In this document: positions 43,932-63,104 of the stretch, piece after piece
Position numbering within the stretch: position 1 is the first letter of the stretch
Layout of the letters: every line of letters starts with the position of its first letter
Assembly: GCA_045648925.1 (NCBI GenBank)
Contig: JAZROY010000003.1
Span: 57,082 to 121,081 of the forward strand
DNA length: 64,000 bases
Source of the DNA: Candidatus Enterousia sp.
GTDB taxonomy: Bacteria; Pseudomonadota; Alphaproteobacteria; Rs-D84
Direction: 5' to 3'
Program-made: the position numbers and the translations under genes
Notes under the pieces: model-generated
What the model saw: the letters and a program-made list of their open reading frames with translations, nothing else
Database searches by the model: none
What the model was told of the DNA's origin: nothing

Positions 43932-44630
43932 TTATTTTCCGATATTTAAACTTTCTTCTATACCATCTTTTTCAAGAATGATGCCATCATTCAAAGATAT
44001 AGATTTTACGATATATCCATCTAAATCTTTACCCACAGCGATGCGTTTATTTTGACCCGTAGATAATTCCTGAATAGTTGCCTGCAATTGGTTATCCATA
44101 CCAACAATATTTATCAATTTATATCTTTTGCTGAAATTACCATCCTCCTTTTTTGGGGTTGTTTTTTTGACAACAACCTCATCAATTTCTTCATCCAAAG
44201 CATATCTTTGTTGCTTTAATTTTTCAGTTTGGATTTCCAATTGAGTTTTCGCAGTTTCCAATTCATGTTGTTGTTGTTCTGCACGTCCAGACAAAGTATC
44301 CAATTCCATTTGTAATTTGATTCTTTCTGCATTTAATCTGTCCAAATCTAAATCAAGTTGTGCGCGTTCTTTTTCCAGTTGTGCGACAACTTTTTCTTGT
44401 TCCAACATTGTAATTTTTTCAAACAAAGAACCGGTCATATCATAATCTTGCAATGCCTGAACAGACATTTCATCCGCCAATTCAGAATCATTTTGCTGAT
44501 TATCATAATCATCATATTCAATAAAATCGTCCATAAAAACTTCTTCGGACCAACCAGAAGAAATATGAAGCCCCAAAGCTATCATACATGCAACAACTAT
44601 AATATTTAATTTTTTAAACATGTTTTCCAC
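43932..44630 (-). CDS. Periplasmic coiled-coil pilus-assembly protein (PilP/BfpU-like, tentative)
   Basis: 232 aa; signal peptide, acidic stretch, long coiled coil, C-terminal beta-domain (KRIAVGKDLDGYIVKSISLNDGIILEKDG). Confidence 0.35.
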   Translation of the reverse strand: MENMFKKLNIIVVACMIALGLHISSGWSEEVFMDDFIEYDDYDNQQNDSELADEMSVQALQDYDMTGSLFEKITMLEQEKVVAQLEKERAQLDLDLDRLNAERIKLQMELDTLSGRAEQQQHELETAKTQLEIQTEKLKQQRYALDEEIDEVVVKKTTPKKEDGNFSKRYKLINIVGMDNQLQATIQELSTGQNKRIAVGKDLDGYIVKSISLNDGIILEKDGIEESLNIGK

Positions 44631-44632
44631 CT

Positions 44633-45883
44633 TTATTTAGAATAAATTACTACTTCGTAATTCCAAACCTTTGTATTTGCACGCCATGTCACAGACGGCA
44701 TATATACACCATCAAATTCATCGAAAGCCCGCATAAATTCCGGCGGTATCAATTTCGAAGAAACCCCTACTTCGGTCACATAGATATTTTCTGTATCTCC
44801 CCCATTTGAAACTCTGTCTATGACGCCTTGGATATTTGCGTTGATATTAGATTGTTGAAAAATAGTTGTCACATCACGCATCAAAGTTGTTTGATCGCGT
44901 TCATCAATCGAAGAATAAGTTTTTAATGCGGGCAACTTTACACGAACAATGATTTCATCATCGGACATTTGTTGCACCATCGCCCCAGGCATTAAATCAC
45001 CACCAATATCATAAAAATCATTTAATGTGCCAAAATCACGCGAAAAATTAGCCGACACATATTCTTCATCACATCTAGCATAGGTTTGATTCCAACCCAT
45101 CACAGGTTGCATTACAAAAGCAATTGCACGATAACACAATTCTGCGCGTTCTTTGACATTTGGTAAATGATTATATGCGTAATCAACACTTTGTTCTGTG
45201 ATGACTGGCATTATTTTTTCAGTCATCTTTTGTGTTTTTTCTTCTATTTGCTTTTTGTATTCTGCGATTTTTTCTGCGTTTATCGTTGGTTTGTTTGCAT
45301 TTTGATTTATCACAGAATTTTTTAATACAACATATCCAAATATCGCGAACAAAATTAAAAACACAATTGTTGGTATCATTGATTTTACAGTGCTTATCTC
45401 ATGTAATTTTACATTTGCACCCTGACCCATTAAATCAGACAACTGTTTTTCTTGGGATTTTGGTATCCCCCAACTTGCAGGTGCGAATAAAGCACCCCAA
45501 TCTGGGATTTCAACCATTTGCATAAATAATTTCCTGGCACTTTGGGCATCAGTAAGCAAAATATCGCGAATAATAACACCATTACGCACAGCGATTAAAT
45601 AATAATTGTTGTTATCTGCCTGGAAAACCCCCAAAAAAGAAACCAAATCTGACAATGCACTGACTATCTCTATTGCGGCACTTGGCATACCAGCATTTGC
45701 GCCTTCGCGCGTATCGGTTAAACCGACCATAGATTTATATCCAACATAAAGTGTATATTTTTTATCGCCATTTTTTGCCAACTGTTTCGCATAATTTTGC
45801 GCAGTATTACCAACCCGCAGGGGCTGCCAAAACAGACCTGTTGCGTATTTTTTATGATTAACGGTTATTACTTGTTTTATCAA
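44633..45883 (-). CDS. Bitopic inner-membrane pilus biogenesis protein (BfpC / R64 PilO-like, tentative)
   Basis: 416 aa; ~170-aa cytoplasmic domain, one TM (IPTIVFLILFAIFGYVVL), ~225-aa periplasmic domain; position and size match bfpC/pilO upstream of the ATPase. Confidence 0.4.
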   Translation of the reverse strand: MIKQVITVNHKKYATGLFWQPLRVGNTAQNYAKQLAKNGDKKYTLYVGYKSMVGLTDTREGANAGMPSAAIEIVSALSDLVSFLGVFQADNNNYYLIAVRNGVIIRDILLTDAQSARKLFMQMVEIPDWGALFAPASWGIPKSQEKQLSDLMGQGANVKLHEISTVKSMIPTIVFLILFAIFGYVVLKNSVINQNANKPTINAEKIAEYKKQIEEKTQKMTEKIMPVITEQSVDYAYNHLPNVKERAELCYRAIAFVMQPVMGWNQTYARCDEEYVSANFSRDFGTLNDFYDIGGDLMPGAMVQQMSDDEIIVRVKLPALKTYSSIDERDQTTLMRDVTTIFQQSNINANIQGVIDRVSNGGDTENIYVTEVGVSSKLIPPEFMRAFDEFDGVYMPSVTWRANTKVWNYEVVIYSK

Positions 45884-45956
45884 TTCTCTCTCGTTATAGA
45901 GACATTATAACACAAATCGATAAAAAAAATAAAGCCGAAATTTATAATAAAAAAGT

Positions 45957-45988
45957 CGTATTTCTACGACTTTTTTCTTACTTTATAC
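45957..45988. terminator. Bidirectional intrinsic terminator upstream of the pilus-like operon
   Basis: A5-agtcgta-tttc-tacgact-T6. Confidence 0.6.
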
Positions 45989-46295
45989 AATCATATACTT
46001 TGACTTTGAACTTATATGTGTGTTCTGGTCCAAATACAGCCCCGATATTATCAATTATATCTTCATTAACAATCAGGTAAGAATCCCCGATTAAATTTTT
46101 GTTTTCCAAGATACTTTTTTCAATATAATCATACGCACCAGATATTTTATATGTTGTCACACTTGAATCCAGATTATACAAAAATTCGCAATTTTTTGGT
46201 TCTTCGGTCAATCTTGTCAGACCATTTCCGCCATCAGTTGTCTTTGCGCAAGCACACAAAGCCAACACAGACATTAAAACAATACTTTTTTTCAT
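45978..46295 (-). CDS. Small hypothetical lipoprotein
   Basis: 105 aa; lipobox VLALCACAK. Confidence 0.4.
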   Translation of the reverse strand: MKKSIVLMSVLALCACAKTTDGGNGLTRLTEEPKNCEFLYNLDSSVTTYKISGAYDYIEKSILENKNLIGDSYLIVNEDIIDNIGAVFGPEHTYKFKVKVYDCIK

Positions 46296-46314
46296 TTTTT
46301 ACTCCTTTTTTTGA

Positions 46315-47244
46315 TTAAACGATTTCATAGTTAGATTTATCACTAAACAATTTTCTTAAAACCAAATTATTCAGTGCATGCGACCCCTTATAAGATTCAA
46401 GATGCCCATAAATAAAACCAGAACTTGTAAACATATCACCAATTGCGTCTATGATTTTATGGCGAACAAATTCATCTTTGTAATATAACTTGTTAAGTGT
46501 TCCATCACCAGCATCATTCAAAGCAATAACATTTTTTTCATTTGCACCATGTGCCATACCATGTGCTTTTAAATAATCCCATTCAGAATATTTTCCAAAA
46601 GTTCTTGACCGTGATACATTTTTCACAAAATTATCAACCGACTTTTTTGTCCCGTCCAACAAACAAGAATAAGATTGTGTTCCAATAATTTTATCATCAT
46701 AAACCAAAGTAGCATCTATCAATAAACCATTTTCATTTGGCGATAATTTAACATAACCATTGCCACGGCGCCAAATTGTGTGATTCAAAATAGTTGTTTT
46801 TATGCATTTCCAAAACGGCATATATTTTGCCAATTCATTTCGTTTTGCGACAACAGTTTTTTTCACGATAATTTTTTTCATCTTATTTTTTTTACCGACT
46901 GCTTTTTCCAACGCGTTAAAAAATTCAAAAGCACTGCCATCCATAATTGGTGTTTCATAATTATCTATTTCGACAATTGCACTGTCAATACCGAGCACGA
47001 AAAAAGTAGCCATCAAATGTTCAACAGTTTGAACATGCGCACCTTTTTTATCACCGATTGTTGTATTGCGCATAAAAGTATCGCCAACATTATCAAATGT
47101 CGCAGGAATTAAATCAGAACCAGCAATATCAATTCTTTTGAAAAAAATCCCCGGCCTTAAAGATGGTTTTATAACCATATTGACTGGCAATCCAGAATGT
47201 ATACCAACACCAGAAACTTTAACTTTTTTTGTTAATGTTGTCAT
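46315..47244 (-). CDS. lpxC: UDP-3-O-acyl-N-acetylglucosamine deacetylase
   Basis: 309 aa; N-terminus ...KVSGVGIHSG, HVQTVEHLMATF zinc site, IMDGSAFEF. Confidence 0.85.
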   Translation of the reverse strand: MTTLTKKVKVSGVGIHSGLPVNMVIKPSLRPGIFFKRIDIAGSDLIPATFDNVGDTFMRNTTIGDKKGAHVQTVEHLMATFFVLGIDSAIVEIDNYETPIMDGSAFEFFNALEKAVGKKNKMKKIIVKKTVVAKRNELAKYMPFWKCIKTTILNHTIWRRGNGYVKLSPNENGLLIDATLVYDDKIIGTQSYSCLLDGTKKSVDNFVKNVSRSRTFGKYSEWDYLKAHGMAHGANEKNVIALNDAGDGTLNKLYYKDEFVRHKIIDAIGDMFTSSGFIYGHLESYKGSHALNNLVLRKLFSDKSNYEIV

Positions 47245-48145
47245 CTACCTTTCCTTTTATCCAATTATAAAAACCTTTTTCGATTTCTATATCCAGCGCA
47301 GAAAATTTTATTTTGTCTTTTGCCCAATCTGGGATACGCACCCAATCTTTTTCTGTGGTTAACAATCGTGCATTTTTCGATTTTGCTTTTTGAATCAACA
47401 AATTGATATCCGCATCACTATATTGATAATGGTCTGGGAAAGATATCTTTTCAACAACATTGCATGGTATGTTATCGAAAAACTTTTTTGGATACCCAAT
47501 CCCGGCAAACGCGATTACATTTACCTTTTTATCATATGGGCAACTTTCACTACTTTTTGCATTAAATATCGGAATATCTGTCGGCAAAGCAAAATTTCGC
47601 GCGACATTTTTTCTTTTTATCAATATAATCGCATCAGCGCGTTTAATCGCAGATTTCCCTTCGCGTAACGGTCCCGCAGGTAACAAAAAACCATTACCAA
47701 ACCCAATTGCTTCATCAAAAACCAGCACAGAAATATCTTTTTTTATAGAAGAATTTTGAAATCCATCATCCATAACAATCGGTGAATTTGATTTTTGTTT
47801 GTTTAATAAAATTAAATTACTTTTTCGATTCCCCACATGCACCAGAATACCATCATTTGACAACATTTTTGCTTCATCACCGACATAATCAGTTTGCTTG
47901 GAATTTTTATATCCCCGCATAACCACAGGAGAATTAAAAAACTTTGCTACTTCGCGCACAATGGGTGTTTTTCCAACCCCACCAGATAAAATATTACCGA
48001 AACAAATTACCGGTCGTCTTGATTTATATTCGCGCATTTTGCGAAAACCAAAGACAGTTTTCGATGCAATAAAATAAAACAAAGACAGTGGCAATAATAA
48101 AATCGCCATAAACCCGCGCTTTAAAAACCATTTTGGTGTTTTCAC
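47219..48145 (-). CDS. lpxK: Tetraacyldisaccharide 4'-kinase
   Basis: 308 aa; P-loop ICFGNILSGGVGKTP; N-terminal membrane anchor. Confidence 0.8.
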   Translation of the reverse strand: MKTPKWFLKRGFMAILLLPLSLFYFIASKTVFGFRKMREYKSRRPVICFGNILSGGVGKTPIVREVAKFFNSPVVMRGYKNSKQTDYVGDEAKMLSNDGILVHVGNRKSNLILLNKQKSNSPIVMDDGFQNSSIKKDISVLVFDEAIGFGNGFLLPAGPLREGKSAIKRADAIILIKRKNVARNFALPTDIPIFNAKSSESCPYDKKVNVIAFAGIGYPKKFFDNIPCNVVEKISFPDHYQYSDADINLLIQKAKSKNARLLTTEKDWVRIPDWAKDKIKFSALDIEIEKGFYNWIKGKVDDNINKKS

Positions 48146-48900
48146 AGTATCACCGCCCTATCTTTAAAATTGTCTGGGGTTAAATCTTGTTCAACCCGGA
48201 ATTTAGTAAATCTTTTATCCAAATCATATGCCTGTTTTACCATAACATCTTCAAGATTTTTACGAATTTTTTCAAAATCTTCGATTTTTGTTTTTCTATC
48301 GATAAATATAGGTTTTCCAACAGTTCCCGCGATAATAGAAAACGGTTTAGTCAACAAATATCTGTCCCATCGATTTTGGAACCACGGTCTGGACGAAGAA
48401 TAACAAACCGGAATTATCGGCGCACCAGTCATTTTCGCGAAATAAAGCGCACCATCATGAAACCGCATAGACGGTCCACACGGGCCATCTGGCGAAAGTG
48501 CCAGACAATTTCCACCGCGTTTAAGTGCCTCTACCCCCTTACGCAGAACAGACACCCCGCCCCCATCAGACGAACCGTATATGGTTTTAAGACCGAATAA
48601 CTTTTCCATTTTTGCGATTGCCCGCCCATCTTTCTTGGCATCAGCAATCGCATACCCGCGCACCCTGTTAAGAGCAATTACCGGCGACAACATCATTGTC
48701 CGTCCATGCCAAAACACGAAAATCGCGGGCTTTCTGGCATATTTTTTCAAAACGGATAAACCCGTAATATCTTTTTTAGATGTGAAATAAACGAACCAGA
48801 TTAAAACATAATAGACAATCGCCATAATCCACTGAACAACCCCCCAACCATATAGAAATCTGAAAAATCGTTTAAATCTTTTTGATATTGATTTTTTCAT
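48142..48900 (-). CDS. DUF374/lysophospholipid-acyltransferase-like protein (commonly lpxK-adjacent in alphaproteobacteria)
   Basis: 252 aa; N-terminal TM, FVFWHGRTMM..SPDGP motif region. Confidence 0.5.
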   Translation of the reverse strand: MKKSISKRFKRFFRFLYGWGVVQWIMAIVYYVLIWFVYFTSKKDITGLSVLKKYARKPAIFVFWHGRTMMLSPVIALNRVRGYAIADAKKDGRAIAKMEKLFGLKTIYGSSDGGGVSVLRKGVEALKRGGNCLALSPDGPCGPSMRFHDGALYFAKMTGAPIIPVCYSSSRPWFQNRWDRYLLTKPFSIIAGTVGKPIFIDRKTKIEDFEKIRKNLEDVMVKQAYDLDKRFTKFRVEQDLTPDNFKDRAVIL

Positions 48901-48920
48901 GTTTTAAAACCTTGATGTAT

Positions 48921-48949
48921 ATCCTAGCAATAAAAAAAATACAATGCAA
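48921..48949 (-). promoter_or_regulatory. Candidate sigma70-type promoter (TTGCAT-17-TAGGAT) for the DUF374 gene/lpx operon
   Basis: Minus strand ttgcat (48949-48944), 17-nt spacer, taggat (48926-48921); the spacer is nearly identical to that of the promoter-like element at 57196-57224. Confidence 0.3.
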
Positions 48950-49011
48950 GTAAGGGTTTATTTGATAAAAAACTATCATATTTGACATTTTTAGAATAAA
49001 GTGCCATTCTC

Positions 49012-49350
49012 ACCCCCAGGTTGGAGTGTGCGAATATATTGAATAAGCACAGCAAACTGTACTTTGTTTAGTGAACTCCAACCACTTTGTTTTTTACAGG
49101 GTGGTATTTTACATATATATTTATAATTACTTTTTTATTTTGACAATTTTGTCAAATGATGTAAAAATACCATTGACGATATGTGTTATATCGTTGGGTT
49201 TATCGACCCATAAGCATAGCAGTTAGAGATGACTGAAAAAATCTCCAACCACAGGTTGGAGTGTGCGAATATAAAGAATAAGCACAACAAACTATGCTTT
49301 GTTCGATAAACTCCAACCACTTTGTTTTTTACAAGGTGGTATTTTGTTTG
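49012..49350. repeat. Two ~100-bp direct repeat copies (49012-49110, 49243-49350) rich in palindromes, separated by an AT-rich spacer carrying the palindrome ttgacaattttgtcaa; candidate cis-regulatory/ncRNA region upstream of an XRE regulator
   Basis: Each copy has ggttggagt ... ~50 nt ... aactccaacc, then the hairpin ccactttg-tttttta-caaggtgg and T-rich tail. Copy 2 adds the perfect 18-bp palindrome ctccaacc-ac-aggttggag. Confidence 0.7.
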
Positions 49351-49366
49351 CTAAAAAAGGTTCAAA

Positions 49367-49699
49367 ATGAAACAAAAAAATATCACGACGCATATAACAA
49401 AAACCATTGCTGAACGAATAAAATTACGAAGAATTATGTTGGGTATGTCGCAATCTGATTTGGGAAAATTGTGCGGGGTTTCTTTTCAACAAATACAAAA
49501 ATACGAAAGCGGGCAAACCAGCATATCTTGCCAACGATTGTTTCAAATCAGCACTGCGCTAGGCACCCCTGTTGATTTTTTCTTTGATACACAAAACAAA
49601 ATGTATGGTTCGGAATCATTAAAATTATTGATTTTATATTGGAAATTACCACAAAATAAGAAAAAACTAATCTTTGAAATGGTAAAAAACATAAAATAA
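49367..49699 (+). CDS. XRE-family helix-turn-helix transcriptional regulator
   Basis: 110 aa; LRRIMLGMSQSDLGKLCGVSFQQIQKYESGQTSIS is a classic HTH_XRE. Confidence 0.75.
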   Translation: MKQKNITTHITKTIAERIKLRRIMLGMSQSDLGKLCGVSFQQIQKYESGQTSISCQRLFQISTALGTPVDFFFDTQNKMYGSESLKLLILYWKLPQNKKKLIFEMVKNIK

Positions 49700-49775
49700 T
49701 TATGAATATACCTAAGATTAAAAGCATTTATTTATTTGACAACCGCATATAAACATGTATAATAAAGCCCGTTAT

Positions 49776-49852
<77 letters not shown>

Positions 49853-50385
49853 GTTAAATGAAAAATACACCCCTGTGGTGTATTTTTTATTTAATGTGTG
49901 TTGTGTTGGGTTTGAACCACCGGGGCAAGGTGGTTCAGTGCAAGGATTAGGCAGACGGCAGTATGCCGGTTTGCGACAGCAAAAATCCGCAGCCAATGAA
50001 GCGAAGCGAAATAAATCCATCTCCCGCAACCAGTTTAAATAAAAAACGTGTCCAAAGCGGCACGTTTTTTATTTAATTTGTTGTGGATTGTTGGTTTGAT
50101 ATCATACAACGCAGTTGTTTGGTTCAAAATTTGTATATAAGAACGAGTTTTTACCCATATTTGGTAAAAACGAAGTTCGAATAACTACAAATTTGCGCGC
50201 AGACACAAAGTGTCGAGCGAATTCCATCTCCCGCAACCAAGATTTAATAAAAAGCACCCCTTGTGGGTGTTTTTTTGTTAAATATGTGTGTTGTGTTGGG
50301 TTTGAACCACCGGGGCAAAGTGGTGCAAAACAAGGATTAGGCAGACGGCAGTATGCCGGTTTGCGACAGCAAAAATCCGCAACTA
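49853..50385 (+). repeat. Array of three tRNA-fMet 3'-end-associated units: A 49853-50042 and B 50043-50239 each end in a copy of the last ~20 nt of tRNA-fMet; C 50240-50385 repeats the body of A (49895-49990 vs 50285-50380, ~93% id) and is cut off at the galE stop
   Basis: Units A and B end ...aaatccatctcccgcaacca and ...aattccatctcccgcaacca; each unit begins with a terminator-like hairpin + T-run. Body hairpin gaaccacc-ggggcaa-ggtggttc. The 3' part (gccggtttgc...tgaagcgNagcgaaaNaaatcc) is shared with the tRNA-Met locus units at 34429-34759. Confidence 0.85.
49860..49888 (+). terminator. Intrinsic terminator after tRNA-fMet
   Basis: tacacc-cctgt-ggtgta + T6. Confidence 0.65.
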
Positions 50386-51387
50386 TTAAACATCCAATTT
50401 ATTTTGATAATTCCAAGAATCACGACACATATCATCCAAAGAATATTCTGCAACCCATCCCAATACGCGTTTCGCTTTTTCTGGATTGGCATAGCACATC
50501 GCGACATCGCCGGGTCGCCGCGCTATAATTTCATACGGGATTTTTATCTTATTTACTTTTTCAAAGGTTTTTATTACATCCAATACAGAATATCCATGCC
50601 CTGTTCCCAGATTAAATATTTCCAAACCACACTTTTTATCAATCGCGAACATTGCGCACACATGCCCACGCGCCAAATCAACCACATGGATATAATCCCT
50701 GACGCCTGTGCCATCAGGTGTATCATAATCATTGCCATATACAAACAATTTTTCACGTTTTCCACACGCAACTTGGGTAATATAAGGCATCAAATTATTT
50801 GGGATACCGTTCGGGTTTTCACCAATCAAACCTGATGGATGTGCGCCAACAGGGTTAAAATAACGCAAAATAACAACATTCATATCTGGGTTTGCTTTTT
50901 GCATATCCACCAAAATTTGTTCTATCATATGTTTGGTCCAACCATATGGATTTGTACATATACCTTTTGGGCATTCTTCGGTAATCGGCACAAATGCAGG
51001 TATTCCATAAACAGTTGCACTGGACGAAAAAATAATATTTTTGCATCCTATTTCATTTAAAACATTTAACAAAGATATTGTCCCAGAAATGTTATTATCG
51101 TAATATTCAACAGGTTTAACCACAGATTCTCCGACAGCCTTTAACCCAGCAAAATGAATACAAGCGTCAATTTTGTACCCAGACAAGAAATTTTTTAATA
51201 CATCTTTATCGCGGATATCGATATTTGAAAATTCTATTTTTTTACCTGTAATTTTTTGAATATTATCCAAAACATTAATTGATGAATTACATAAATTATC
51301 TATACCAACGATATCAAAACCATTATTTTGCAATTCAACAATTGTATGCGAAGCAATAAATCCTGTGGCACCTGTTACTAGAATCAT
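50386..51387 (-). CDS. galE: UDP-glucose 4-epimerase
   Basis: 333 aa; MILVTGATGFIASH Rossmann motif, YxxxK, GalE-like throughout. Confidence 0.85.
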   Translation of the reverse strand: MILVTGATGFIASHTIVELQNNGFDIVGIDNLCNSSINVLDNIQKITGKKIEFSNIDIRDKDVLKNFLSGYKIDACIHFAGLKAVGESVVKPVEYYDNNISGTISLLNVLNEIGCKNIIFSSSATVYGIPAFVPITEECPKGICTNPYGWTKHMIEQILVDMQKANPDMNVVILRYFNPVGAHPSGLIGENPNGIPNNLMPYITQVACGKREKLFVYGNDYDTPDGTGVRDYIHVVDLARGHVCAMFAIDKKCGLEIFNLGTGHGYSVLDVIKTFEKVNKIKIPYEIIARRPGDVAMCYANPEKAKRVLGWVAEYSLDDMCRDSWNYQNKLDV

Positions 51388-51484
51388 TTTTTACCTTTTT
51401 ACTTGTCTTTCATCCTATTTTTGATTCAGCAGTAATTATCCATATCTATATCATACAAATCTATAACTATGTGGCCCAATAAAA

Positions 51485-51763
51485 TCAATCTAATCTGGTA
51501 AATTCTACATAAGTATATTCAGTATCATTTGTCATATCTGGTATTTTTGTTTTATCAAGACCGGACCAATCGACCCACTTTCCGCTTGATTCCAGAGCTT
51601 TTACATTCTGCACCCATTCTAAATCCGAAGGACATTTATAAACAATATGTGTAGATGTTTTTGCTATTCTTTCGCAATCGGTCATTGTGTTTTCTATATT
51701 TTTGCTATCATTATAACATCCGCCCAACACAAGAACAGGTAATATTAACAATAGAAATTTCAT
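51485..51763 (-). CDS. Small hypothetical lipoprotein
   Basis: 92 aa; lipobox VLGGCYN. Confidence 0.4.
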   Translation of the reverse strand: MKFLLLILPVLVLGGCYNDSKNIENTMTDCERIAKTSTHIVYKCPSDLEWVQNVKALESSGKWVDWSGLDKTKIPDMTNDTEYTYVEFTRLD

Positions 51764-51945
51764 AAAAACCCCTTTCGCTTATACTGGTAAGTATACTTTA
51801 AAATTTGTTTTTTCGCAATATGTATTTAACATGGGTCTATTAAATTCCGCATAAATTTTACATTCGATTACAAAAACATTCAAATTGGCATACAGCAAGT
51901 ATACATAATCAAAATCCTAAACCAAGGAATTTGATTATGTATTTT

Positions 51946-54900
51946 TTACAAAGTAGTCAACCAAGATAAATCTGATGAACACAATAATCCAAGTTGTTTA
52001 TCACTTTTATAAATTGCTTCTTTGAATAATATATTTTTTTCTGTTAATTTTGACTTTAACATTGACCAGGTTTCTTGTTCCCCTATACGATTCATATCAT
52101 CCAATAAAATTACAAAAGATTTATCCAGATTATCAACAATATCCAATATTTCTGGTCTGGAATAATGTGCACTACCCAAAGGTCCATCAATCATCACAAG
52201 ATTAAATTTTTTACCTTTGATAACTGATTCAAAACCTTTATAAGTTCTAGATTCATGCTCAGGAACAATATGTACCATTTCAGTATCCAAAATTTTTGTA
52301 TATTTATCAGCTGTGGGAAATTGAAGTTTAAAGAACGACAACCAATCTTGGTTATTTTCACAAATCATCAACTTTGCTTTATATGCATCAGCATATTGAA
52401 TTGTTAATTTAGAACTTTGACCAAGTCCACACTCTAATATAGATTGTGGTTTAATTTCATCTAGTATTCTAAACAAAACATATAAAACAATATACGACAC
52501 TGCCCAGCGACCAGGCGATACAGATTTATCTTTTAACCAAACGCTGTTTAATATAGTATCATGATAAACATTTGCCCAATAAGGTTCCATGTTTAATAAA
52601 GAAAATTTATGTTGAACATTGATAAAAAAATCTTGCATATTTTTCATACTAATTTCATGCTGTTTATTAATACAATCCAATTGTAAATTCAATTGCAAAT
52701 TCAATTCGTTAATATGCTTTTCCAACTTATCTATACTACTACGCGTGCTGTGAGAATACATAACTTGTTTTATATGTCTTCTAAATTTTGCCAAAGGCAA
52801 AGAAACAACATTCATCCATACGGTTGCGAGCAAGTAATACGGGAATAAAACATAACTTTTTACATGATTATCTTTGTACAAAAATGCTAATTTAGATTTA
52901 TCATATCGTTTTAATAAATGTTTCATATCTTTGATATATAACTTTTTATCTGTCTGATCCAGCTTTACAAAATCATTCACCAGAATTCCTAAATACGAAT
53001 TCACATAATTATTGAATGTTTTTTTATTTATTTTACACTGTTTCAAATACCCAAGAAGTATATCTGTTATTTTCAAAAAATCCGCAAAATGGTGATTCCG
53101 AGTTTGTGTTGTAGATTTAGGATGTAATCTACGACAATACAATTTCTCATTTAATATTCCACACGCAGATGCCTTGGTTAACCCTTTGACAAAGAAAACA
53201 TTGTCTTCGAAAAAAAGTTCTTCTGGAAATTGTAAATTATTTTTTTCTATAAAAGAATGTTTATAAATTGTTAAACATGTTGATACAGCCATTAAATGTG
53301 CAAAATCTAAACAATCTTTAAACGAAAAAACTGTCTTGTTCCAATTTTGTGGTAAATAATTAAAATCCCAAAGTTTATTTGGTTCCATAATATCTGTTCC
53401 ATCTTTAAAATTTCTACCACTGAACATCAACATATCTAAATTGTTTTTATTTGCATATGTATATAATTTTTCAATAGCATTTAATTGCAGATAGTCATCA
53501 GAATCTACAAATTGAATATAATGACCTTTGGCTATATTTAAAGCTTGATTTCTTGCAGTTCCTTGTTTTCTATTAACACGATTATCTATTACTTTTATTC
53601 TAGAATCTTTATCAGCATATTTTTTAATGATATTCAATGAATTATCTGTTGAACCATCATTTACACAGATAATTTCAATATTTTTCTCTGTTTGATTAAT
53701 AACAGAATCTAAACATTTTTCTAAATATTTTTCTGTATTATAAACAGGTATTATAACAGAAACTTTTACATCATAGGATTCATTGTTATTTGACTGTAAT
53801 ATTTTATTCTTTTCAATATATTCATTTGGATTATTCATAATCATTTGTAAATCAGACCATTGATTATTGTTGAAATATTTTTTATCAATATCACCATGTT
53901 TTTTGTGTTGTTTAAATTCTTTACCAATGGCTGTTAAATATTCCGGCCAATATTCAACATCCAAACGCGCAATCATATGATAAATATACGCATTAAATTT
54001 ACGCAAAAAATAAACAGGAAGCAATTTAGCCACTTTTTTATGTTTCGCAAATATATTATCAATAAAATGATATTCATTTGGAATTGTCCAAACATTATTC
54101 TTTTTCTTTATAGACTGATTTGGATTATCTTGGCGGTAACAATAAAATACACAGTTCATAAAATATACTTTATCTGCCAAATATGTTGTTTGTGCCCAAA
54201 AACCATTATCTTGATATGCAGCCCCAGGGGTTTCATTATGACGGATTTTATATTTATCCAAAAAGGAATGTTTAAATATTCCCGCTGGATTAATAGCAAA
54301 AATATACAATATTTTTTCATCTTTTTCGGGTGTTAAAACACGGTTATAAAAACTCTCTGGCGCATTAAATACTTTTTTATTTGTATATCTATATTGTTTG
54401 TTTTCACCTGTAAATTCACAATAATCAGCCTTGATAACATCCAAATCTAATTCTTTTGCCTTATTATATAATGTTTCATACATATCAGGTTTAATAAAAT
54501 CATCAGGTTCAACAATACCAATATATTCACCGCACGCTAAATCAATACCACAATTCATTGTTTGACCATAACCTGCATTTGGTTTATCGATATATTTAAC
54601 ACGTTTGTCTTTATCAGCATATTCTTTAATGATATTCAATGAATTATCTGTTGAACCATCATTAACACAAATAATTTCAATATCTTTTAATGTCTGATTA
54701 ACAACGCTGTCCAAACATTCACGTAAATAAGGTTCCGCATTATAAATTGGCAGAACAACTGAAACTTTTGGTGACTCTTTCATAATATCTTTTCGAAACA
54801 TATAAGATTTATCTGGCTCATAAAAATATTTTGTATCATATAAGTGACGATATATATCCAAATCATACACCAGTTTATTTTGTAAATCGTTTAAAAGTTT

Positions 54901-55845
54901 GCTTTTTACCTCTACATCTTTAATTGAATTGTAATTATATAAAGCTCCAGACAAAACACAATTTACAAAAGATTGTTCATAAATATCGTATATTTTCATC
55001 TTCTGTAATTCTTTCTTTACAGACATTGATGCTGTATACCAATCCAAAGGACTTTTATGGTTATTAGACTGTAAACTGCTATTATTTCCAACACGATAAT
55101 GCCCTAAACATTCTTGTATAACAGACATTCTTTTTGCTTTTACCAGTGCCATAAAGACAAAGTATAAATCATTTGTTCTTGATAAAGATTGAAAATACAA
55201 TTTATTAGCTTTAATAAAATTATGATTAAACATTTTATTCCATGGCCAACTACACGAAAAATTAAAAATGTATTTTGAAATATCTTGTGCAGAAAACACG
55301 TCATTATTTGGCATATACTTGTTTGACAGCAACCAATTTTGTGGGGAATATTTTTTTGAACCGGTATCATACGCATCTGTTCTATAAATAACAATATCCA
55401 AATTTTTGTTTGTCGCCAAAGAATATGCATTTTTTAACATATTTAACTCAAAAAAATCATCACTATCTAAAAAAGATAAATACTCACCTTTAGCAACAGC
55501 AAGACCTGCATTACGGGCAACACCAGCATATAAATTTTTTTGCGTAATAACTGTAATTCTATTATCTTTTTTTGCATATTCTTTCAATATTTCCAGAGAA
55601 TTATCAGTTGAACCATCGTCAACACAAATTATTTCAATGTCGTGTAAAGTTTGATTTACTATTGAATCTAAACATTCGCGCAAATATTGTTCAACATTAT
55701 AAACAGGAATAATCACAGAAACCTTTGGGATATAATCAATCTTGTTTTGAATCAAAATAGTAGCATCAGTATCTTTGATACCATCCGCATTTCGCACACT
55801 AATCATGGCATGTTTTTTTGTTTGCTTTGTTTCTGTTTTTTTCAT
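51946..55845 (-). CDS. Multidomain glycan synthase: three tandem GT2 glycosyltransferase modules + coiled-coil segment + C-terminal class-I SAM-methyltransferase-like domain
   Basis: 1299 aa. GT2 signature (VSV[IV]IPVYN.E.YL..CLDS..NQT...IE[IV]ICV[DN]DGSTDNSL.I[LI]KEYA.KD.R[IV]) occurs three times (~aa 43, ~365, ~694), each with a DxD downstream (LDSDD / VEPDD / VDSDD). Coiled coil SSIDKLEKHINELNLQLNLQLDCINKQ. C-terminal ILECGLGQSS...LVMIDGP resembles MTase motif I / post-I. Confidence 0.75.
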   Translation of the reverse strand: MKKTETKQTKKHAMISVRNADGIKDTDATILIQNKIDYIPKVSVIIPVYNVEQYLRECLDSIVNQTLHDIEIICVDDGSTDNSLEILKEYAKKDNRITVITQKNLYAGVARNAGLAVAKGEYLSFLDSDDFFELNMLKNAYSLATNKNLDIVIYRTDAYDTGSKKYSPQNWLLSNKYMPNNDVFSAQDISKYIFNFSCSWPWNKMFNHNFIKANKLYFQSLSRTNDLYFVFMALVKAKRMSVIQECLGHYRVGNNSSLQSNNHKSPLDWYTASMSVKKELQKMKIYDIYEQSFVNCVLSGALYNYNSIKDVEVKSKLLNDLQNKLVYDLDIYRHLYDTKYFYEPDKSYMFRKDIMKESPKVSVVLPIYNAEPYLRECLDSVVNQTLKDIEIICVNDGSTDNSLNIIKEYADKDKRVKYIDKPNAGYGQTMNCGIDLACGEYIGIVEPDDFIKPDMYETLYNKAKELDLDVIKADYCEFTGENKQYRYTNKKVFNAPESFYNRVLTPEKDEKILYIFAINPAGIFKHSFLDKYKIRHNETPGAAYQDNGFWAQTTYLADKVYFMNCVFYCYRQDNPNQSIKKKNNVWTIPNEYHFIDNIFAKHKKVAKLLPVYFLRKFNAYIYHMIARLDVEYWPEYLTAIGKEFKQHKKHGDIDKKYFNNNQWSDLQMIMNNPNEYIEKNKILQSNNNESYDVKVSVIIPVYNTEKYLEKCLDSVINQTEKNIEIICVNDGSTDNSLNIIKKYADKDSRIKVIDNRVNRKQGTARNQALNIAKGHYIQFVDSDDYLQLNAIEKLYTYANKNNLDMLMFSGRNFKDGTDIMEPNKLWDFNYLPQNWNKTVFSFKDCLDFAHLMAVSTCLTIYKHSFIEKNNLQFPEELFFEDNVFFVKGLTKASACGILNEKLYCRRLHPKSTTQTRNHHFADFLKITDILLGYLKQCKINKKTFNNYVNSYLGILVNDFVKLDQTDKKLYIKDMKHLLKRYDKSKLAFLYKDNHVKSYVLFPYYLLATVWMNVVSLPLAKFRRHIKQVMYSHSTRSSIDKLEKHINELNLQLNLQLDCINKQHEISMKNMQDFFINVQHKFSLLNMEPYWANVYHDTILNSVWLKDKSVSPGRWAVSYIVLYVLFRILDEIKPQSILECGLGQSSKLTIQYADAYKAKLMICENNQDWLSFFKLQFPTADKYTKILDTEMVHIVPEHESRTYKGFESVIKGKKFNLVMIDGPLGSAHYSRPEILDIVDNLDKSFVILLDDMNRIGEQETWSMLKSKLTEKNILFKEAIYKSDKQLGLLCSSDLSWLTTL

Positions 55846-55846
55846 T

Positions 55847-57013
55847 TTATTTCCCTATAATTTTATTAAATGTTTCAAACGCACCTTGGATTGTTCGATT
55901 CATATCATAATATCTGTATGCACCCAATCTGCCTAAGAAATATACATTTGATAATTTTTTTGCTTCTTCGAAATATCTATCATAAATTGCTTGGTTTGTT
56001 GGATTTAATATTGGATAAATTCGTTCGTTTTTGCCATTTTCAAAATCTTCTGGATATTCAAAAGTCAATACAGTTTTGTCTGATTTTTCATTTAAAAACC
56101 ATTTGTTTTCTGTAATTCTTGTAAAATCATAATTTTCAGGATAATTTACAACTGCAGCATTTTGAAAATGTGACACATTAAATGTTTCTATTCTTATATC
56201 CAAACTGCGATACGGTAATTTACCAAACTTGTAATCGAAATATTCTTCTATGGCGCCAGTATAAAATAGACGCTTGTATTTTATTGATTTTTTCAGTTTT
56301 TCAAAATTTGTATTCAACATTACACTTATATTTGGGTGTGCCAACATACGTTCAAACATCACAGTATAACCATCACGTGGAATTCCTTGAAACCGTTCTT
56401 GGAAATAACGACTATCGCGACCGATAAATACTGGGACAGAACCCGTAACAGATGGATCTAGTTGTTCTGGACTTAATCCCCATTGTTTAAGGGTATAGTT
56501 TAAAAATACTTTTTTATAAATGTAATCAGCCAAAAAGTTTAAATCTTCATCGTTTGTTTTACGTAATTCCAGAATAGGAACCTTGGTATTAAAACCAAAC
56601 TTTGCAATTAATTTTCCTTCTAATTTATTTGCCAAAGTTTCTGGCAACGCACGATGTAAAGAATCTAGATTAAACGGAATTGGAACTTCTATACCGTCAA
56701 TTATACCAAGAACGCGATGCATAAATGGATTCCAAGTCGTATATTTAGATAAAAAATTCCATACTTCTGTAGAATTAGTTCTGAAAATGTGGGGGCCATA
56801 TTTATGAACATGAATGCCTGTCTCATTGTCAATATAATCAAAACAAGTGCCGCCAATATGGTCTTTCTTGTCAATAATCACAACAGGTTCATTTAATTCC
56901 GTAGCGATTTTGTTTGCCATTACTATTCCAGATAACCCACACCCAACAATAAAATTCGTATTCTCATTTACAGAACTAGTATCTGATATGTATCTTACAT
57001 TTTGCTTTACCAT
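55847..57013 (-). CDS. glf: UDP-galactopyranose mutase
   Basis: 388 aa; FAD motif FIVGCGLSGIVMA, Glf-like throughout, canonical length. Confidence 0.85.
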   Translation of the reverse strand: MVKQNVRYISDTSSVNENTNFIVGCGLSGIVMANKIATELNEPVVIIDKKDHIGGTCFDYIDNETGIHVHKYGPHIFRTNSTEVWNFLSKYTTWNPFMHRVLGIIDGIEVPIPFNLDSLHRALPETLANKLEGKLIAKFGFNTKVPILELRKTNDEDLNFLADYIYKKVFLNYTLKQWGLSPEQLDPSVTGSVPVFIGRDSRYFQERFQGIPRDGYTVMFERMLAHPNISVMLNTNFEKLKKSIKYKRLFYTGAIEEYFDYKFGKLPYRSLDIRIETFNVSHFQNAAVVNYPENYDFTRITENKWFLNEKSDKTVLTFEYPEDFENGKNERIYPILNPTNQAIYDRYFEEAKKLSNVYFLGRLGAYRYYDMNRTIQGAFETFNKIIGK

Positions 57014-57195
57014 AACACAACCCCATCATTTACTATTTTTAATTTGTCTGATTTTATCTTTTAACCTGTGGTATTTATTGTGAACTTTTATTGGATATTT
57101 AAAAAATCTTAAATCACAAATATGTCTTATAAAATGCATGTTTGTTTCCTTTGTCTTATTTTCAGATTTTTTCATGCTTTAAACATTATTATGGG

Positions 57196-57224
57196 AATTT
57201 TAGCAATAAAAAATAAATAATGCA
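57196..57224 (-). promoter_or_regulatory. Candidate sigma70-type promoter (TTGCAT-17-TAAAAT) for the glf / multidomain GT operon
   Basis: Minus strand ttgcat (57224-57219), 17-nt spacer, taaaat (57201-57196), within a 317-bp AT-rich intergenic region upstream of glf. Confidence 0.35.
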
Positions 57225-57330
57225 AGCCGGCCGCAAAAACTATTTAACAATGAAAATTAAAGGTTTATACCGGGTTTATTCATACAATCAGTGTAATAAT
57301 TTGAACATAAAATACATATAAATTTTACAA

Positions 57331-58374
57331 CTATCTCTTATAACTTAAAATTTTTATTCCACAAAAATACACATGTATTCTACCATTTGAACAATATTCT
57401 TTTGCGAATAAGAAATTTCTTTTAATTACAGAATCTGGCGCAAAATGTAATTTATAACTAAGAAATTTTATTCCAAATATATAAAATTTATGGCGTCCAT
57501 TTATAAAAGTATGTTTAAAAACAAAACTTAATATATATCTAACAATACTTGTTTTAATTTGATAACAGTTATTATACTTGTCCCATAAAGCACTGCCAGG
57601 GGCACCCTCAGAATTCCAAGGTTTCTTTTTATTTGTTAAATGTAAAATTACAGGTTTTTTTAATATTTTTTCTATATCTTTTTCTTGATAAAAATCAGAA
57701 ATTTCATTGTCTGGATAATCTAAATTTTGTACCATACAATTATATTTCAAAGAAACATATATAACATTTTCATTAAACACCTGATTCAAAGCATCTTGGT
57801 CCATAAAGTGTTTATATTTATCATGTTTTTTTGCATAAAGTAATTTATCAGTACTATTATTTTCGCGCATTTTTTTTAAATTTAACAACATCATACCAGA
57901 ATTAAAATATTTATCTATCCCCAGTTTTAGATGATGTTTTTCATTAACCATTGCTTTCATATCAGTAACAACCGCAGCATATTTTCCATTTAAATTTGTA
58001 CTATACAAATCATATAAATCACCTAAAATTAACATATCTCCATCTAAATATAAAATTTTATCCAAATCCGGAAACATATTTGGTAAATTAAATTTTAACA
58101 TTGCGGCTTTACTTACATGCTGATGTGTTGTTTGAATATCAGAATAAATATTTTCAGTATTTATTACATATATATTTACATTGTGCTCTTTTAATTTCTT
58201 AAATTTATTTATTATCTTTTCAGCCACATCAACAGCAATAATATAGATATTATACATTGTGTCTTTTTTACAATTTTCAATCAAAGATTCAATAGCCACA
58301 CCCGTAGGAACCGCATAATTTGTATCAGTTATAAAACAAATATTTACTGTTCTTTTCATTTTTTTATTTTTCAT
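57331..58374 (-). CDS. Glycosyltransferase family 8 (LPS alpha-1,2/1,3-glycosyltransferase-like)
   Basis: 347 aa; N-terminal VNICFITDTNYAVPTGVAIESL, DxD (YLDGDMLILGD), HxxGxxKPW (HLTNKKKPW). Confidence 0.65.
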   Translation of the reverse strand: MKNKKMKRTVNICFITDTNYAVPTGVAIESLIENCKKDTMYNIYIIAVDVAEKIINKFKKLKEHNVNIYVINTENIYSDIQTTHQHVSKAAMLKFNLPNMFPDLDKILYLDGDMLILGDLYDLYSTNLNGKYAAVVTDMKAMVNEKHHLKLGIDKYFNSGMMLLNLKKMRENNSTDKLLYAKKHDKYKHFMDQDALNQVFNENVIYVSLKYNCMVQNLDYPDNEISDFYQEKDIEKILKKPVILHLTNKKKPWNSEGAPGSALWDKYNNCYQIKTSIVRYILSFVFKHTFINGRHKFYIFGIKFLSYKLHFAPDSVIKRNFLFAKEYCSNGRIHVYFCGIKILSYKR

Positions 58375-59293
58375 AAGTTTTTATAATATCAGATATTGTT
58401 TGTTGTAATGTATATTTTTGATTCCATCCTAATTCTTTTTTTAATTTAGTGTTATCCCCAATAACCGAAGAAATTTCGTTAGCACGAATACGCGATGAAT
58501 CTATAATTATATTTGGTTTGATATTTAATTCCTTTGCAGTTGTGTTTATTATATCGCGCAATTTAACCCCTTGACCACTGCATACATTATAAACACTGCG
58601 ATTTTGCGCATTTTTAATTATTAAATAATACGCATTAACAACATCACGAACATCTGTAAAATCACGAACCACATCAATATTACCAACCATCATTTTATTT
58701 TCGCTTTTTCCTTTTGATATATTCACCAACTGTTCAATAAAAGATGGTATAACAAAACGAGTATTTTGACGCGGACCAATATGATTAAAAGAACGTGTCA
58801 TTACAATATCCATATTAAAATTATCAACATATAATTTTGACATATATTCTTGTGATAAACGAGCAACTGAATACGGACTTTTTGGATGTAAATTTAAATC
58901 TTCAGTCATTGGGTTATCATATATTCCGTATTCTTCAGACGAACCAACAGATAAAATTCTTGTTTTTAATTTATTATTACGCACAGCATCAGCCAAATTC
59001 AAAAATGCCGACATATTATTCATAAAACAATTTGCTGGTTCTTTCCAACTTTGTGCCACAGAAGACATAGCAGCTAAATGAACAATATAATCAGGTTTCA
59101 AAGACCTTACTATCCTGTTTACCTGTTCATTATCCATCAGATTCAAAGATCTGTATTTAATATTCATGTCACATTTTGGTGTTATATCAATTCCATATAT
59201 TTTTGATTCAGGTTCTTTTTCATTAAGATATTCTACAAAATATCTTCCAACAAAGCCCATAACACCTGTTATTAAATACTTACTCATATACAC
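58364..59293 (-). CDS. rmd: GDP-4-dehydro-6-deoxy-D-mannose reductase (Rmd-like, GDP-D-rhamnose forming)
   Basis: 309 aa SDR; GVMGFVGRY, YSVARLSQEY; block-wise similarity to Pseudomonas Rmd (RSFNHIGPRQ..FVIPSF, GNIDVVRDFTDVRDVVNAY, VYNVCSGQGVKLRDII); adjacent to gmd. Confidence 0.65.
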   Translation of the reverse strand: MYMSKYLITGVMGFVGRYFVEYLNEKEPESKIYGIDITPKCDMNIKYRSLNLMDNEQVNRIVRSLKPDYIVHLAAMSSVAQSWKEPANCFMNNMSAFLNLADAVRNNKLKTRILSVGSSEEYGIYDNPMTEDLNLHPKSPYSVARLSQEYMSKLYVDNFNMDIVMTRSFNHIGPRQNTRFVIPSFIEQLVNISKGKSENKMMVGNIDVVRDFTDVRDVVNAYYLIIKNAQNRSVYNVCSGQGVKLRDIINTTAKELNIKPNIIIDSSRIRANEISSVIGDNTKLKKELGWNQKYTLQQTISDIIKTYEK

Positions 59294-59301
59294 TACCTTT
59301 A

Positions 59302-60351
59302 TTATCTTTGAGGTTGTTTCAGCGTTTTTTCCATTTTTACCAATTTTAAATCTTCAGCAACCATTTCTTGTGCCAAAGTTTTCCAAGTATATGTTGGTTT
59401 CCAGCCCAATTGAGTTCTTGCCTTTGTTGAATCACCTAATAACAAATCAACTTCGGCTGGACGGAAGAATTGTGGGTCCACAGCGACAACAGTTTTACCA
59501 GTTTTTTTATCAACTGCCTTTTCATTAACACCATTGCCAGACCATTCTAAATCAAAACCAGCTTCTTTAAAAGCAACCTTTACAAAATCACGAATAGATG
59601 TAGTAACACCTGTGGCCAAAACATAATCCGATGGTTTTTCTGCTTGTAATATACGCCACATACCTTCGACATAATCTTTGGCATGACCCCAATCGCGTTT
59701 GGAATCCATATTCCCAAGATATAAACAATCTTGAAGACCTTCTTTGATTCTGGCTGCTGCTAATGTAATTTTGCGTGTCACAAAATTATCACCGCGTCTT
59801 GGACTTTCATGATTAAACAAAATACCATTGCACGCAAATATGCCATAAGATTCACGATAATTCACAGTAATCCAATAACCATATAATTTAGCCACACCAT
59901 ACGGAGAACGCGGATAAAACGGTGTTTTTTCAGACTGAATTGGTTCTTGAATTAAACCAAATAACTCAGATGTAGATGCCTGGTAAAATCTTGTTTTTTT
60001 ATCCAACCCATTTGTATGGATTGCCTCTAATAAACGCAAAACACCAATCGCGTCAGATTCTGCAGTAAATTCTGGACAATCCCATGATATTTTAACATGT
60101 GATTGTGCAGCCAAATTATAAACTTCATCTGGTTGTAATTGACGAACTAAATTATTTAAATTTGTAGAATCTGTCATATCACCATAATGCAAATGTATTT
60201 TATCAGATATATGGTCTATTCTTTGTGTATTCGGTACAGAAGCACGACGAACAATACCATGAACTTCATAACCTTTACCCAATAACAATTCTGCCAAATA
60301 TGAACCATCTTGTCCTGTAATACCTGTAATCAAAGCAACTTTTTTTGTCAT
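59302..60351 (-). CDS. gmd: GDP-mannose 4,6-dehydratase
   Basis: 349 aa; [38 protein letters not shown] is the canonical Gmd N-terminus; YGVAKLY catalytic motif. Confidence 0.9.
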
Positions 60352-60368
60352 ATCCTACCTTTTTATTA

Positions 60369-61616: not shown

Positions 61617-61624
61617 ATCAATAC

Positions 61625-62635: not shown

Positions 62636-62699
62636 ATTAAACCTATTTGAACCACAGGCTAGGATTTTAGACTATAAAATACGATAAATCAAGTATTTA

Positions 62700-62740
62700 T
62701 AAGAAAAACACCCCTTCCGGGGTGTATTTTTATTTTTAAT
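62700..62740. terminator. Intrinsic terminator separating the tail-fibre-like genes from the glycan operon
   Basis: acacccc-ttcc-ggggtgt hairpin with T/A runs on both sides; sits just downstream (minus sense) of the 118-aa gene stop. Confidence 0.6.
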
Positions 62741-63092: not shown

Positions 63093-63104
63093 AACTTTAC
63101 TCCT

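Follow-up and report, generated by a model that had tools for sequence, protein, structure and literature searches.

A candidate Brt-like attenuator RNA upstream of an XRE-family regulator gene in Candidatus Enterousia and a family of related predicted leader RNAs in gut bacteria

The pair of direct repeats examined in the present study comes from Candidatus Enterousia sp. (Alphaproteobacteria, assembly GCA_045648925.1) and lies in the 466 bp that separate a divergent DUF374 gene from a gene for a small XRE-family helix-turn-helix (HTH) protein (49367-49699). Positions are those of a 64,000-nt stretch of contig JAZROY010000003.1 (57,082 to 121,081, forward strand), hereafter the window. We propose that the region encodes a leader RNA similar to the Brt RNAs of Bartonella, which would control the XRE gene by conditional attenuation of transcription, and give this reading a probability of about 60%; the terminated product is probably also a stable small RNA (sRNA). 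The element has more than 100 relatives, which form an uncatalogued and widespread family of predicted structured leader RNAs in gut bacteria.

A first-pass annotation, made from the letters alone, had described two ~100-bp repeats of ~85% identity upstream of an XRE-type regulator, each with the same order of motifs. The alignment bears this out, 49011-49110 and 49246-49345 being 88% identical over 100 nt and each comprising GGTTGGAGT, ~47 nt, ACTCCAACC and then a terminator-like hairpin with a T tail (49081-49105 and 49316-49340); the downstream open reading frame (ORF) indeed encodes an HTH_3/XRE protein. The combination GGTTGGAGT...ACTCCAACC is found exactly twice in the window (49019-49083 and 49254-49318; 0 expected from 100 shuffles), and the motif formed by arm c and the terminator, like that of arm b, is confined to the two repeats. 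A reported perfect 18-bp palindrome in copy 2 is a genuine dyad at 49243-49261, CTCCAACC-ACA-GGTTGGAG, although it consists of 8-nt arms around a 3-nt loop. The same annotation had suggested a pair of structured RNAs; an RNA element is indicated, but as one intact copy (copy 2) accompanied by one 5'-deleted relic (copy 1). It had not marked that the copy 2 unit reaches ~75 nt further 5' (from ~49172), nor that copy 1 is without that 5' domain.

Family structure and the three-arm switch

At least 120 stretches of metagenome sequence, sampled from rumen, human gut and termite gut, carried the motif GGTTGGAG-N4-9-GAATATNNNGAATAAG, often with several matches from one assembly. More than 100 relatives have promoter, helices and terminator in common. 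The 105 instances aligned with MAFFT share a layout in which TATAAT lies ~7 nt before a first hairpin (P0), followed by a structured RNA of ~180-200 nt, an intrinsic terminator, and a ribosome-binding site (RBS) and start codon 45-55 nt past arm c. Rfam 15 returned only tRNAs over the whole window at gathering score, and nothing relevant at E <= 10 over 48700-49900. A full-text literature search with arm and loop sequences found only unrelated papers on small interfering RNAs and microRNAs, with zero occurrences of the 16-nt loop.

Base pairing was counted on 119 matches to covariance model (CM) R1 (129 positions, 31 pairs), re-aligned with the alignment fitted to the terminated-state structure. 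The terminated-state helix set was paired in 93.5% of cells, against 68.6% after shuffling and at most 51% in slid controls, and double-change cells numbered 845 against 242 in the shuffled set. RNAalifold recovered an 8-bp P0 with many compensatory changes (30-55 double-change sequences per pair), a helix between arms b and c, and a covarying terminator stem. Helix PK (96.2% paired, all 7 pairs with changes on both sides) joins the loop of PA, a G-rich hairpin, to the 7-8 nt directly 5' of arm c. P1b (87.6%, all 7 pairs covarying) joins the segment that follows in the 5' domain to a local hairpin, P5 (80.9%), at its loop and 3' half. The remaining helices comprise PA (88.7-91.7% by pair set, with GC, AU and GU types), P2 (93.6%; variable, and missing from a short subclass), a:b (93.6%), b:c (98.6%) and P4 (98.5%, all 5 pairs covarying), which carries the conserved loop GAAUAUAUUGAAUAAG. 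The bipartite long-range duplex formed by PK and P1b is also evident independently of any alignment: duplexes of the 5' domain with the 3' segment gave -16.9 kcal/mol within a sequence and -7.3 kcal/mol across sequences, the self duplex being the better in 104 of 105 sequences. Unpaired nucleotides are conserved in the P4 loop, an A-rich joiner and the GGG/CC of PA.

Inspection of the 105-sequence alignment for a leader-peptide upstream ORF revealed no conserved start codon with a Shine-Dalgarno (SD) sequence in the 5' domain, and the place where a leader peptide would sit is filled by the covarying P0, PA, P1b and P2. The idea that the repeats are remnants of a duplicated, degraded protein-coding gene is hardly credible: short ORFs of at most 51 amino acids (aa) can be read in the region and nothing more, and the absence of ORF conservation, the compensatory substitutions in helices and the terminator and promoter signals all speak against it.

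Because the scan pattern prescribed both arm b and the P4 loop, the invariance of b in the first sample is an artefact, a bias partly offset by 15 pattern-independent CM copies. Several of these copies show a joint change of arms a, b and c, from the canonical CUCCAACC / GGUUGGAG / CUCCAACC to CUCCUGGC / GUCAGGAG / CUCCUGAC (L159), CUCCUGGC / GUCAGGAG / CUCCUGGC (L137) or CUCCUGAU / GUCAGGAG / CUCCUGAC (L084). Because the three arms change together, b is taken to be selected for pairing with both a and c. The last 2-4 nt of arm c (AACC) open the terminator stem, so that b:c and the terminator are mutually exclusive, while a:b pairing leaves c free. The ninth b:c pair covaries (GC 85, UA 13, UG 8 and AU 3), and UG pairs occur at two a:b positions in 20 and 14 sequences. 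The CUCC/GGAG arm halves and the P4 loop core AAUAUAUUGAAUAA are kept in the pattern-independent copies, with the other arm halves covarying, which suggests a role for the kept parts beyond mere pairing. The structured RNA with attenuator logic put forward in the first-pass annotation is supported, far more strongly than a single locus would allow, by this three-way covariation, by the overlap of b:c with the 5' arm of the terminator and by the number of relatives.

The autoregulated operator array offered as its alternative found no such support. In favour of reading the palindromes as DNA operators bound by the XRE protein, and the repeat as an operator array, XRE proteins bind dyads, and the 16-bp palindrome noted between the copies, TTGACAATTTTGTCAA (49140-49155), does contain the -35 TTGACA of the copy 2 promoter. 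Arm pairing, however, is kept through G.U wobbles that are meaningless in duplex DNA, compensatory changes span ~80-90 nt, and the element also precedes genes for surface proteins, HsdM, a GT2 protein and an ABC transporter. On account of the wobbles and the long-range compensation, arms a, b and c are excluded as XRE operators, and we regard an operator array as very improbable overall. Nor is the -35 dyad conserved at promoters of homologous XRE-linked elements, which have TGACA/TGTCA repeats at other spacings or none; by itself it could still be an operator, leaving the RNA model unaffected.

The minimum free energy (MFE) fold of copy 2 (49172-49350; -65.9 kcal/mol, z = -7.6) equals the terminated state, containing P0, the long-range helix with a GGG:CUC extension into arm c, P2, a:b, P4 and the terminator. 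Folds with b:c forced were 10-17 kcal/mol worse, and termination is therefore the default of copy 2; its read-through state would need outside input. In copy 1, which is without an intact arm a, the b:c-forced and MFE folds are isoenergetic (-28.7 vs -28.9 kcal/mol). Under the attenuator model, copy 2 would be transcribed from its own sigma70-type promoter (~49172), and its RNA would fold into P0, the PA/PK pseudoknot joined to P1b, P2, the a:b hairpin and P4. In the predicted OFF default, c would be unpaired to b and the terminator (49316-49340) would form, stopping transcription ~20 nt before the XRE start codon. In the ON state, b:c (9 bp) would sequester the ACC shared with the terminator stem and permit read-through into the XRE gene. 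The regulatory input would be whatever moves b from a to c; it would presumably destabilise arm a or the 5' domain, or sequester one of them, or else stabilise PA against GGG:CUC pairing.

Leaders built from a terminator, an antiterminator and an anti-antiterminator, that is, three mutually exclusive segments, are familiar from OFF riboswitch platforms and the PyrR-controlled pyr attenuators. The present element resembles them in that an upstream a:b pairing frees the terminator and b:c overlaps its 5' arm. It differs in its clamp helix, which at ~15-25 bp is bipartite, pseudoknotted and far longer than a typical riboswitch P1, in a gene association that is not a metabolic regulon, and in matching nothing in Rfam.

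Comparison with the Brt RNAs of Bartonella

The RNAs Brt1-9 are abundant and 194-203 nt long. Each lies directly upstream of an XRE gene, trp, that is poorly expressed, and they were reported to be specific to the genus Bartonella; found by BLAST, they are 74-100% similar to each other (Tu et al. 2016, PMC5387305). When the 3' stem-loop of Brt1 is deleted, trp1 is de-repressed, which identifies this stem-loop by experiment as an attenuator of trp1; temperature and pH were without effect, and a reporter rose as heme fell (PMC8070961). Brt1 has also been proposed to act in trans (PMC5387305, PMC8070961).

With primers taken from the literature, we placed Brt copies on five Bartonella plasmids, pTLV-1, pBGR3, pTT0105, pBHa and pOE11-1 (L201-L205; for example L201:901-1100(-)); these copies are unannotated in their records. 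Chromosomal copies also exist, 34 of them in B. tribocorum. Gaps in the five-sequence MAFFT alignment were too inconsistent for column counts, and compensation was tested by an RNAduplex matrix of self and cross pairings. On the sense strand a P0 hairpin follows straight after the -10 box, and the loop of a G-rich hairpin pairs with the 7 nt directly 5' of arm c, with compensation among UUAAAAG/CUUUUAA, AAUAAAG/CUUUAUU and AGUAAAG/CUUUACU. The second long-range helix reaches the loop of a GCUGA...UCAG hairpin formed locally, and it too exists in compensatory forms (AAUUAUAG/CUAUAAUU, AAUUCUAG/CUAGAAUU, AGUUCGAG/CUCGAACU and GUUUGG/CCAAAC). These are followed by a variable hairpin, an adjacent a:b hairpin, a covarying P4 and a distal arm c, the arms a/b/c being CUUCCCGGA / UUCCGGGAG / CUCCCGGAA. 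Independent MFE folds of the five sequences gave the helix order of window copy 2.

The two families thus share the order P0, G-rich hairpin, second long-range helix, variable hairpin, a:b, P4, c and 3' hairpin, as well as the invariant CUCC/GGAG arm halves. Both are multi-copy RNAs of ~180-200 nt with a promoter of their own (in the window a promoter-like site), ending ~20 nt before a promoterless XRE gene, at a 3' end that is an attenuator by experiment in Brt1 and a predicted terminator in the window element. The window XRE protein is homologous to the Trp-group HTH proteins, with 36% identity over 115 aa (E 2e-20) to the Brt-adjacent protein of pBGR3 and 46% over 61 aa (E 6e-18) to that of pTLV-1 by BLASTP. 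The differences lie in the arm core (CCGG in Brt, AACC in the gut family), in the P4 loop, which is short in Brt and GAAUAUAUUGAAUAAG in the gut family, and in the Brt 3' hairpin, which lacks a U tract and stands apart from arm c. The gut family, moreover, occurs in uncultured gut bacteria outside Bartonella and also precedes surface-protein and other accessory genes. Homology of the two families is plausible, though unproven. As a separate observation, the SD region of the plasmid HTH genes, CCGGAGGGGG, lies just past the Brt 3' hairpin and is partly complementary to the a/c arms (CUCCCGG), which may point to control of translation in addition to that of transcription.

Tandem arrays are common in the gut family; 3-5 diverged units repeated every ~200 nt occur at L100:178-980(+), L137:8444-9356(+), L196:3318-3809(-) and L119:2363-2864(-). 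Their 5' and 3' domains are matched within units, some units lack the P4 loop or have changed a/b/c arms, and no ORF lies between units. Such arrays are among the observations that make trans-acting sRNA genes, single or tandem, the main rival to conditional attenuation, one we rate as distinctly less probable though a serious contender. Termination would then be essentially constitutive, the arms would serve folding or target pairing with the invariant CUCC acting as anti-SD-like seeds, and downstream genes would be reached by leakage only. Tandem sRNA arrays with C-rich anti-SD-like motifs are known, as in the alphaproteobacterial CcsR or 'cuckoo' RNAs (alpha-r14) and LhrC1-5 of Listeria. 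With these the gut units share tandem organisation, a promoter and terminator per unit, conserved CU-rich (CUCC) motifs and an association with surface-protein genes; the gut units differ in being about twice as long, with a conserved multi-helix pseudoknotted fold and physical coupling to a downstream ORF, and in having no Rfam match to the CcsR or LhrC families.

An sRNA function also accords with the -10 box and terminator of each unit, with a terminated fold favoured by 10-17 kcal/mol and with invariant CUCC/GGAG halves beside covarying ones, as it does with the great abundance of Brt RNAs, the poor transcription of trp and the proposed trans action of Brt1 (PMC5387305, PMC8070961). Against it stand the position of the last array unit, almost always 45-55 nt before an RBS and a promoterless ORF, the overlap of b:c with the terminator stem through a covarying closing pair, which a pure sRNA gene would not need, and the de-repression of trp1 on deletion of the Brt1 3' stem-loop (PMC8070961).

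Several findings weigh against a conditional, Brt-like attenuator. Given the great stability of the 18-25-bp long-range helix, the ON state may be rare or never reached, and termination could then be constitutive. As the alignment was fitted to the terminated-state set, the pair counts lean towards that set, and the apparent conservation of arm b and the P4 loop is inflated by the scan pattern, with only partial compensation from the 15 independent copies. With filters off, R1 and a second, broader model, R2, reached at best 9-12 bits (E 0.09-1.4) on the five plasmid Brt loci, with comparable scores on the wrong strand; in four of these loci R2 gave weak matches (7-11 bits) on the correct strand and span. 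Neither BLAST nor CM detected primary similarity to the five loci, and none is visible beyond the CUCC/GGAG arm cores. In the absence of a significant CM match, homology with Brt is based solely on the architecture and the linked XRE gene.

Two copies at the locus and their surroundings

Copy 2 scored 104.9 bits (E 6.5e-21) under R1 and has PK and P1b strands of its own that compensate each other; its intact element runs from ~49172 to 49347, with an inferred start at ~49172-49176 and a predicted length of ~176 nt (Table 1). Copy 1, by contrast, appears to be a decayed tandem copy stripped of its 5' domain and arm a: P0, PA, the P1b 5' strand and P2 are deleted, and at the junction after 49007 the sequence ...AAAGTGCCAT (48998-49007) runs straight into the mutated arm a. 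Its promoter remnant was unlisted by the promoter scan and is consequently considered weak.

A syntenic contig, L141, ~98% identical to window positions 44001-51925, carries a single element before the XRE gene. The 3' half of that element is 97.8% identical to window copy 1, and the counterpart of the copy 1 -10 box, which is damaged in the window, is CATATT and heads an intact element. This one-element allele, with an intergenic region of 311 nt, was also found in L206-L208, and the allele with relic plus intact copy (~470 nt) in L209-L212 as well as the window, with an identical deletion junction; each allele is represented by independent samples. Copy-number polymorphism of this kind, together with the multi-copy nature of the element and its few copies on viral contigs, would fit a DNA repeat that is selfish or structural in nature (REP/MITE-like, or a recombination site) and has no RNA function. 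Such a repeat would hardly keep a constant orientation and a fixed distance to a start codon, a promoter and terminator in each copy, and strand-specific G.U pairs; no terminal inverted repeats or target duplications were seen at the one-copy/two-copy junction, and we hold this explanation to be highly unlikely. A mainly phage-borne element was likewise rejected, only 4 matches being on viral contigs.

Table 1 Features of the repeat region and its flanking genes (window positions)
Feature	Position	Strand	Sequence, evidence or remark
DUF374 gene	48142-48900	-	Divergent neighbour bounding the 466-bp gap
Copy 1 promoter remnant	48982-49010	+	-35 TTGACA 48982-48987, 17-nt spacer, -10 position CATTCT 49005-49010
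Copy 1, 5'-truncated relic	49008-49110	+	CM R1 54.9 bits, E 1.5e-9
Copy 1 degenerate arm a	49008-49018	+	TCTCACCCCCA
Copy 1 arm b	49019-49027	+	
Copy 1 P4	49027-49051	+	Loop GAATATATTGAATAA
Copy 1 P1b/PK 3' strands	49057-49074	+	
Copy 1 arm c	49075-49083	+	
Copy 1 terminator	49081-49105	+	T tail to 49110
Copy 2 promoter	49140-49168	+	-35 TTGACA 49140-49145, 17-nt spacer, TG-extended -10 AAAAAT ending 49168; promoter scan
Copy 2 P0 hairpin	49175-49195	+	GACGAUAUG / UAUAUCGUU; RNA 5' end; MFE fold
Copy 2 PA hairpin	49196-49209	+	GGGU-UUAUCG-ACCC; loop and 3' side UUAUCGA = PK 5' strand
Copy 2 P1b 5' strand	49212-49219	+	AAGCAUAG; partner 49292-49299; duplex self/cross test
Copy 2 P2 hairpin	49220-49235	+	CAGUUA-GAGA-UGACUG; covariation, MFE fold
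Copy 2 A-rich joiner	49236-49242	+	Conserved; directly before arm a
Copy 2 arm a	49243-49250	+	CUCCAACC; anti-antiterminator strand; a:b pairing, three-way covariation
Copy 2 arm b	49254-49262	+	GGUUGGAGU; alternative partners a or c
Copy 2 P4	49262-49286	+	UGUGC / GCACA, conserved AU-rich loop GAAUAUAAAGAAUAA; covariation
Copy 2 P1b 3' strand	49292-49299	+	CUAUGCUU; within loop and 3' half of alternative local hairpin P5
Copy 2 PK 3' strand	49302-49309	+	UUCGAUAA; directly 5' of arm c
Copy 2 arm c	49310-49318	+	ACUCCAACC; last 3 nt (ACC) = first 3 nt of terminator stem
Copy 2 intrinsic terminator	49316-49347	+	ACCACUUUG-UUUUUUA-CAAGGUGGU and U tail; terminator scan; in MFE fold
XRE-family HTH gene	49367-49699	+	110 aa; Pfam HTH_3, E 5.9e-14

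The start codon (ATG) of the XRE gene lies 20 nt past the U tail of copy 2, with no promoter between the terminator and the ATG. The nearest relatives of its product come from metagenome-assembled genomes (MAGs) of gut Alphaproteobacteria and Enterousia (37-41% identity); the window itself has 36% GC, lpxC/lpxK genes and an AddB of alphaproteobacterial type (hidden Markov model match below the curated cut-off). On this evidence the host would probably be a gut alphaproteobacterium not yet in culture; tblastn of the window proteins against the loci of named MAGs yielded no overlaps.

Several further features were observed around the locus. A perfect promoter, TTGACA-16-TATAAT (49736-49763), lies directly upstream of a tRNA-Met(CAT) gene (49776-49852), the 3' end of which, AAATCCATCTCCCGCAACCA, occurs three times in direct orientation (49833-49865, 50013-50045 and 50220-50252; spacings of 180 and 207 nt). 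Among these copies is a 107-nt direct repeat of 92% identity (49894-50000 and 50284-50390). This stretch had no Rfam match and differs in the sister strain L141; it looks like stacked attachment (att) scars of integrated elements, or a small element carrying the tRNA 3' end. Downstream, GC content falls to 27-31% over 52000-64000, compared with 35-39% elsewhere in the window, and the low-GC stretch opens with a minus-strand ORF of 1299 aa (51946-55845) containing repeated glycosyltransferase-2-like modules. The stretch may be a horizontally acquired glycosylation island.

Downstream genes and implications

The genes following the element are varied. Among 68 scanned, at least 10 encode small XRE/Cro-type HTH proteins, and signal-peptide surface proteins include Listeria-Bacteroides repeat proteins (8 of 68) and Cys-rich families without a Pfam match; others are tiny proteins of unknown function, with single cases of HsdM, GT2, T5orf172/GIY-YIG, Bro-N and an ABC transporter. 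R1 found a single match in 80 loci of XRE homologues from GTDB genomes, in a sheep-rectum Alphaproteobacteria MAG (L001), where the element lies not beside the XRE gene but upstream of a signal-peptide ORF, and a generic a-b-c triple-arm detector flagged 2 of the same loci against a background of 11%; the leader is therefore not general to this XRE family.

Two recurrent families were noted among the secreted downstream proteins (for example at L086, L088, L102, L104, L162 and L177), one with a Cys-rich C-terminal motif, YCWC(K/R/Q)..SPA.S.WV, the other with TTNVVSASYVKGAYNDAIAAI; neither matches Pfam. A variant subtype of the element with arm c CCUCCAGC and a different 5' domain and 3' hairpin was observed in L081 (1485-1702, minus strand), L116, L125, L197 and L218. 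It scores ~44-48 bits under R1 and precedes genes for antirepressor-like Bro-N proteins; one of its copies comes from an IMG/VR viral contig.

As a whole, the downstream set does not constitute a metabolic regulon; its make-up is closer to that of gene sets under global signals or under accessory-gene regulators. Among riboswitches, such mixed gene sets are seen for global signals only. A more speculative possibility, to which we attach a low probability, is that the gut family and Brt form a superfamily of ~200-nt pseudoknotted riboswitches in host-associated Alphaproteobacteria, sensing a global host cue directly and, through the flip of arm b, switching on XRE regulators and surface or adhesin genes. 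Heme, from the Brt1 reporter data (PMC8070961), is the only lead to such a cue. Were the superfamily real, its members would make up a new class of riboswitch, and their three-arm expression platform, clamped by a pseudoknot, would be an unusual one.

The Brt RNAs control a virulence regulator, and the BadA adhesin and biofilm circuit of Bartonella henselae is under their control. Thought to be specific to their genus, they would gain a large and diverse sister family, with more than 100 instances and many paralogues per genome. The covariation-supported structure of that family, with its pseudoknot and three-arm terminator switch, maps onto Brt and opens the way to mutational tests in Bartonella. 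For the little-known gut Alphaproteobacteria, the family represents a sizeable structured RNA class missing from Rfam, which appears to gate regulators and surface proteins.

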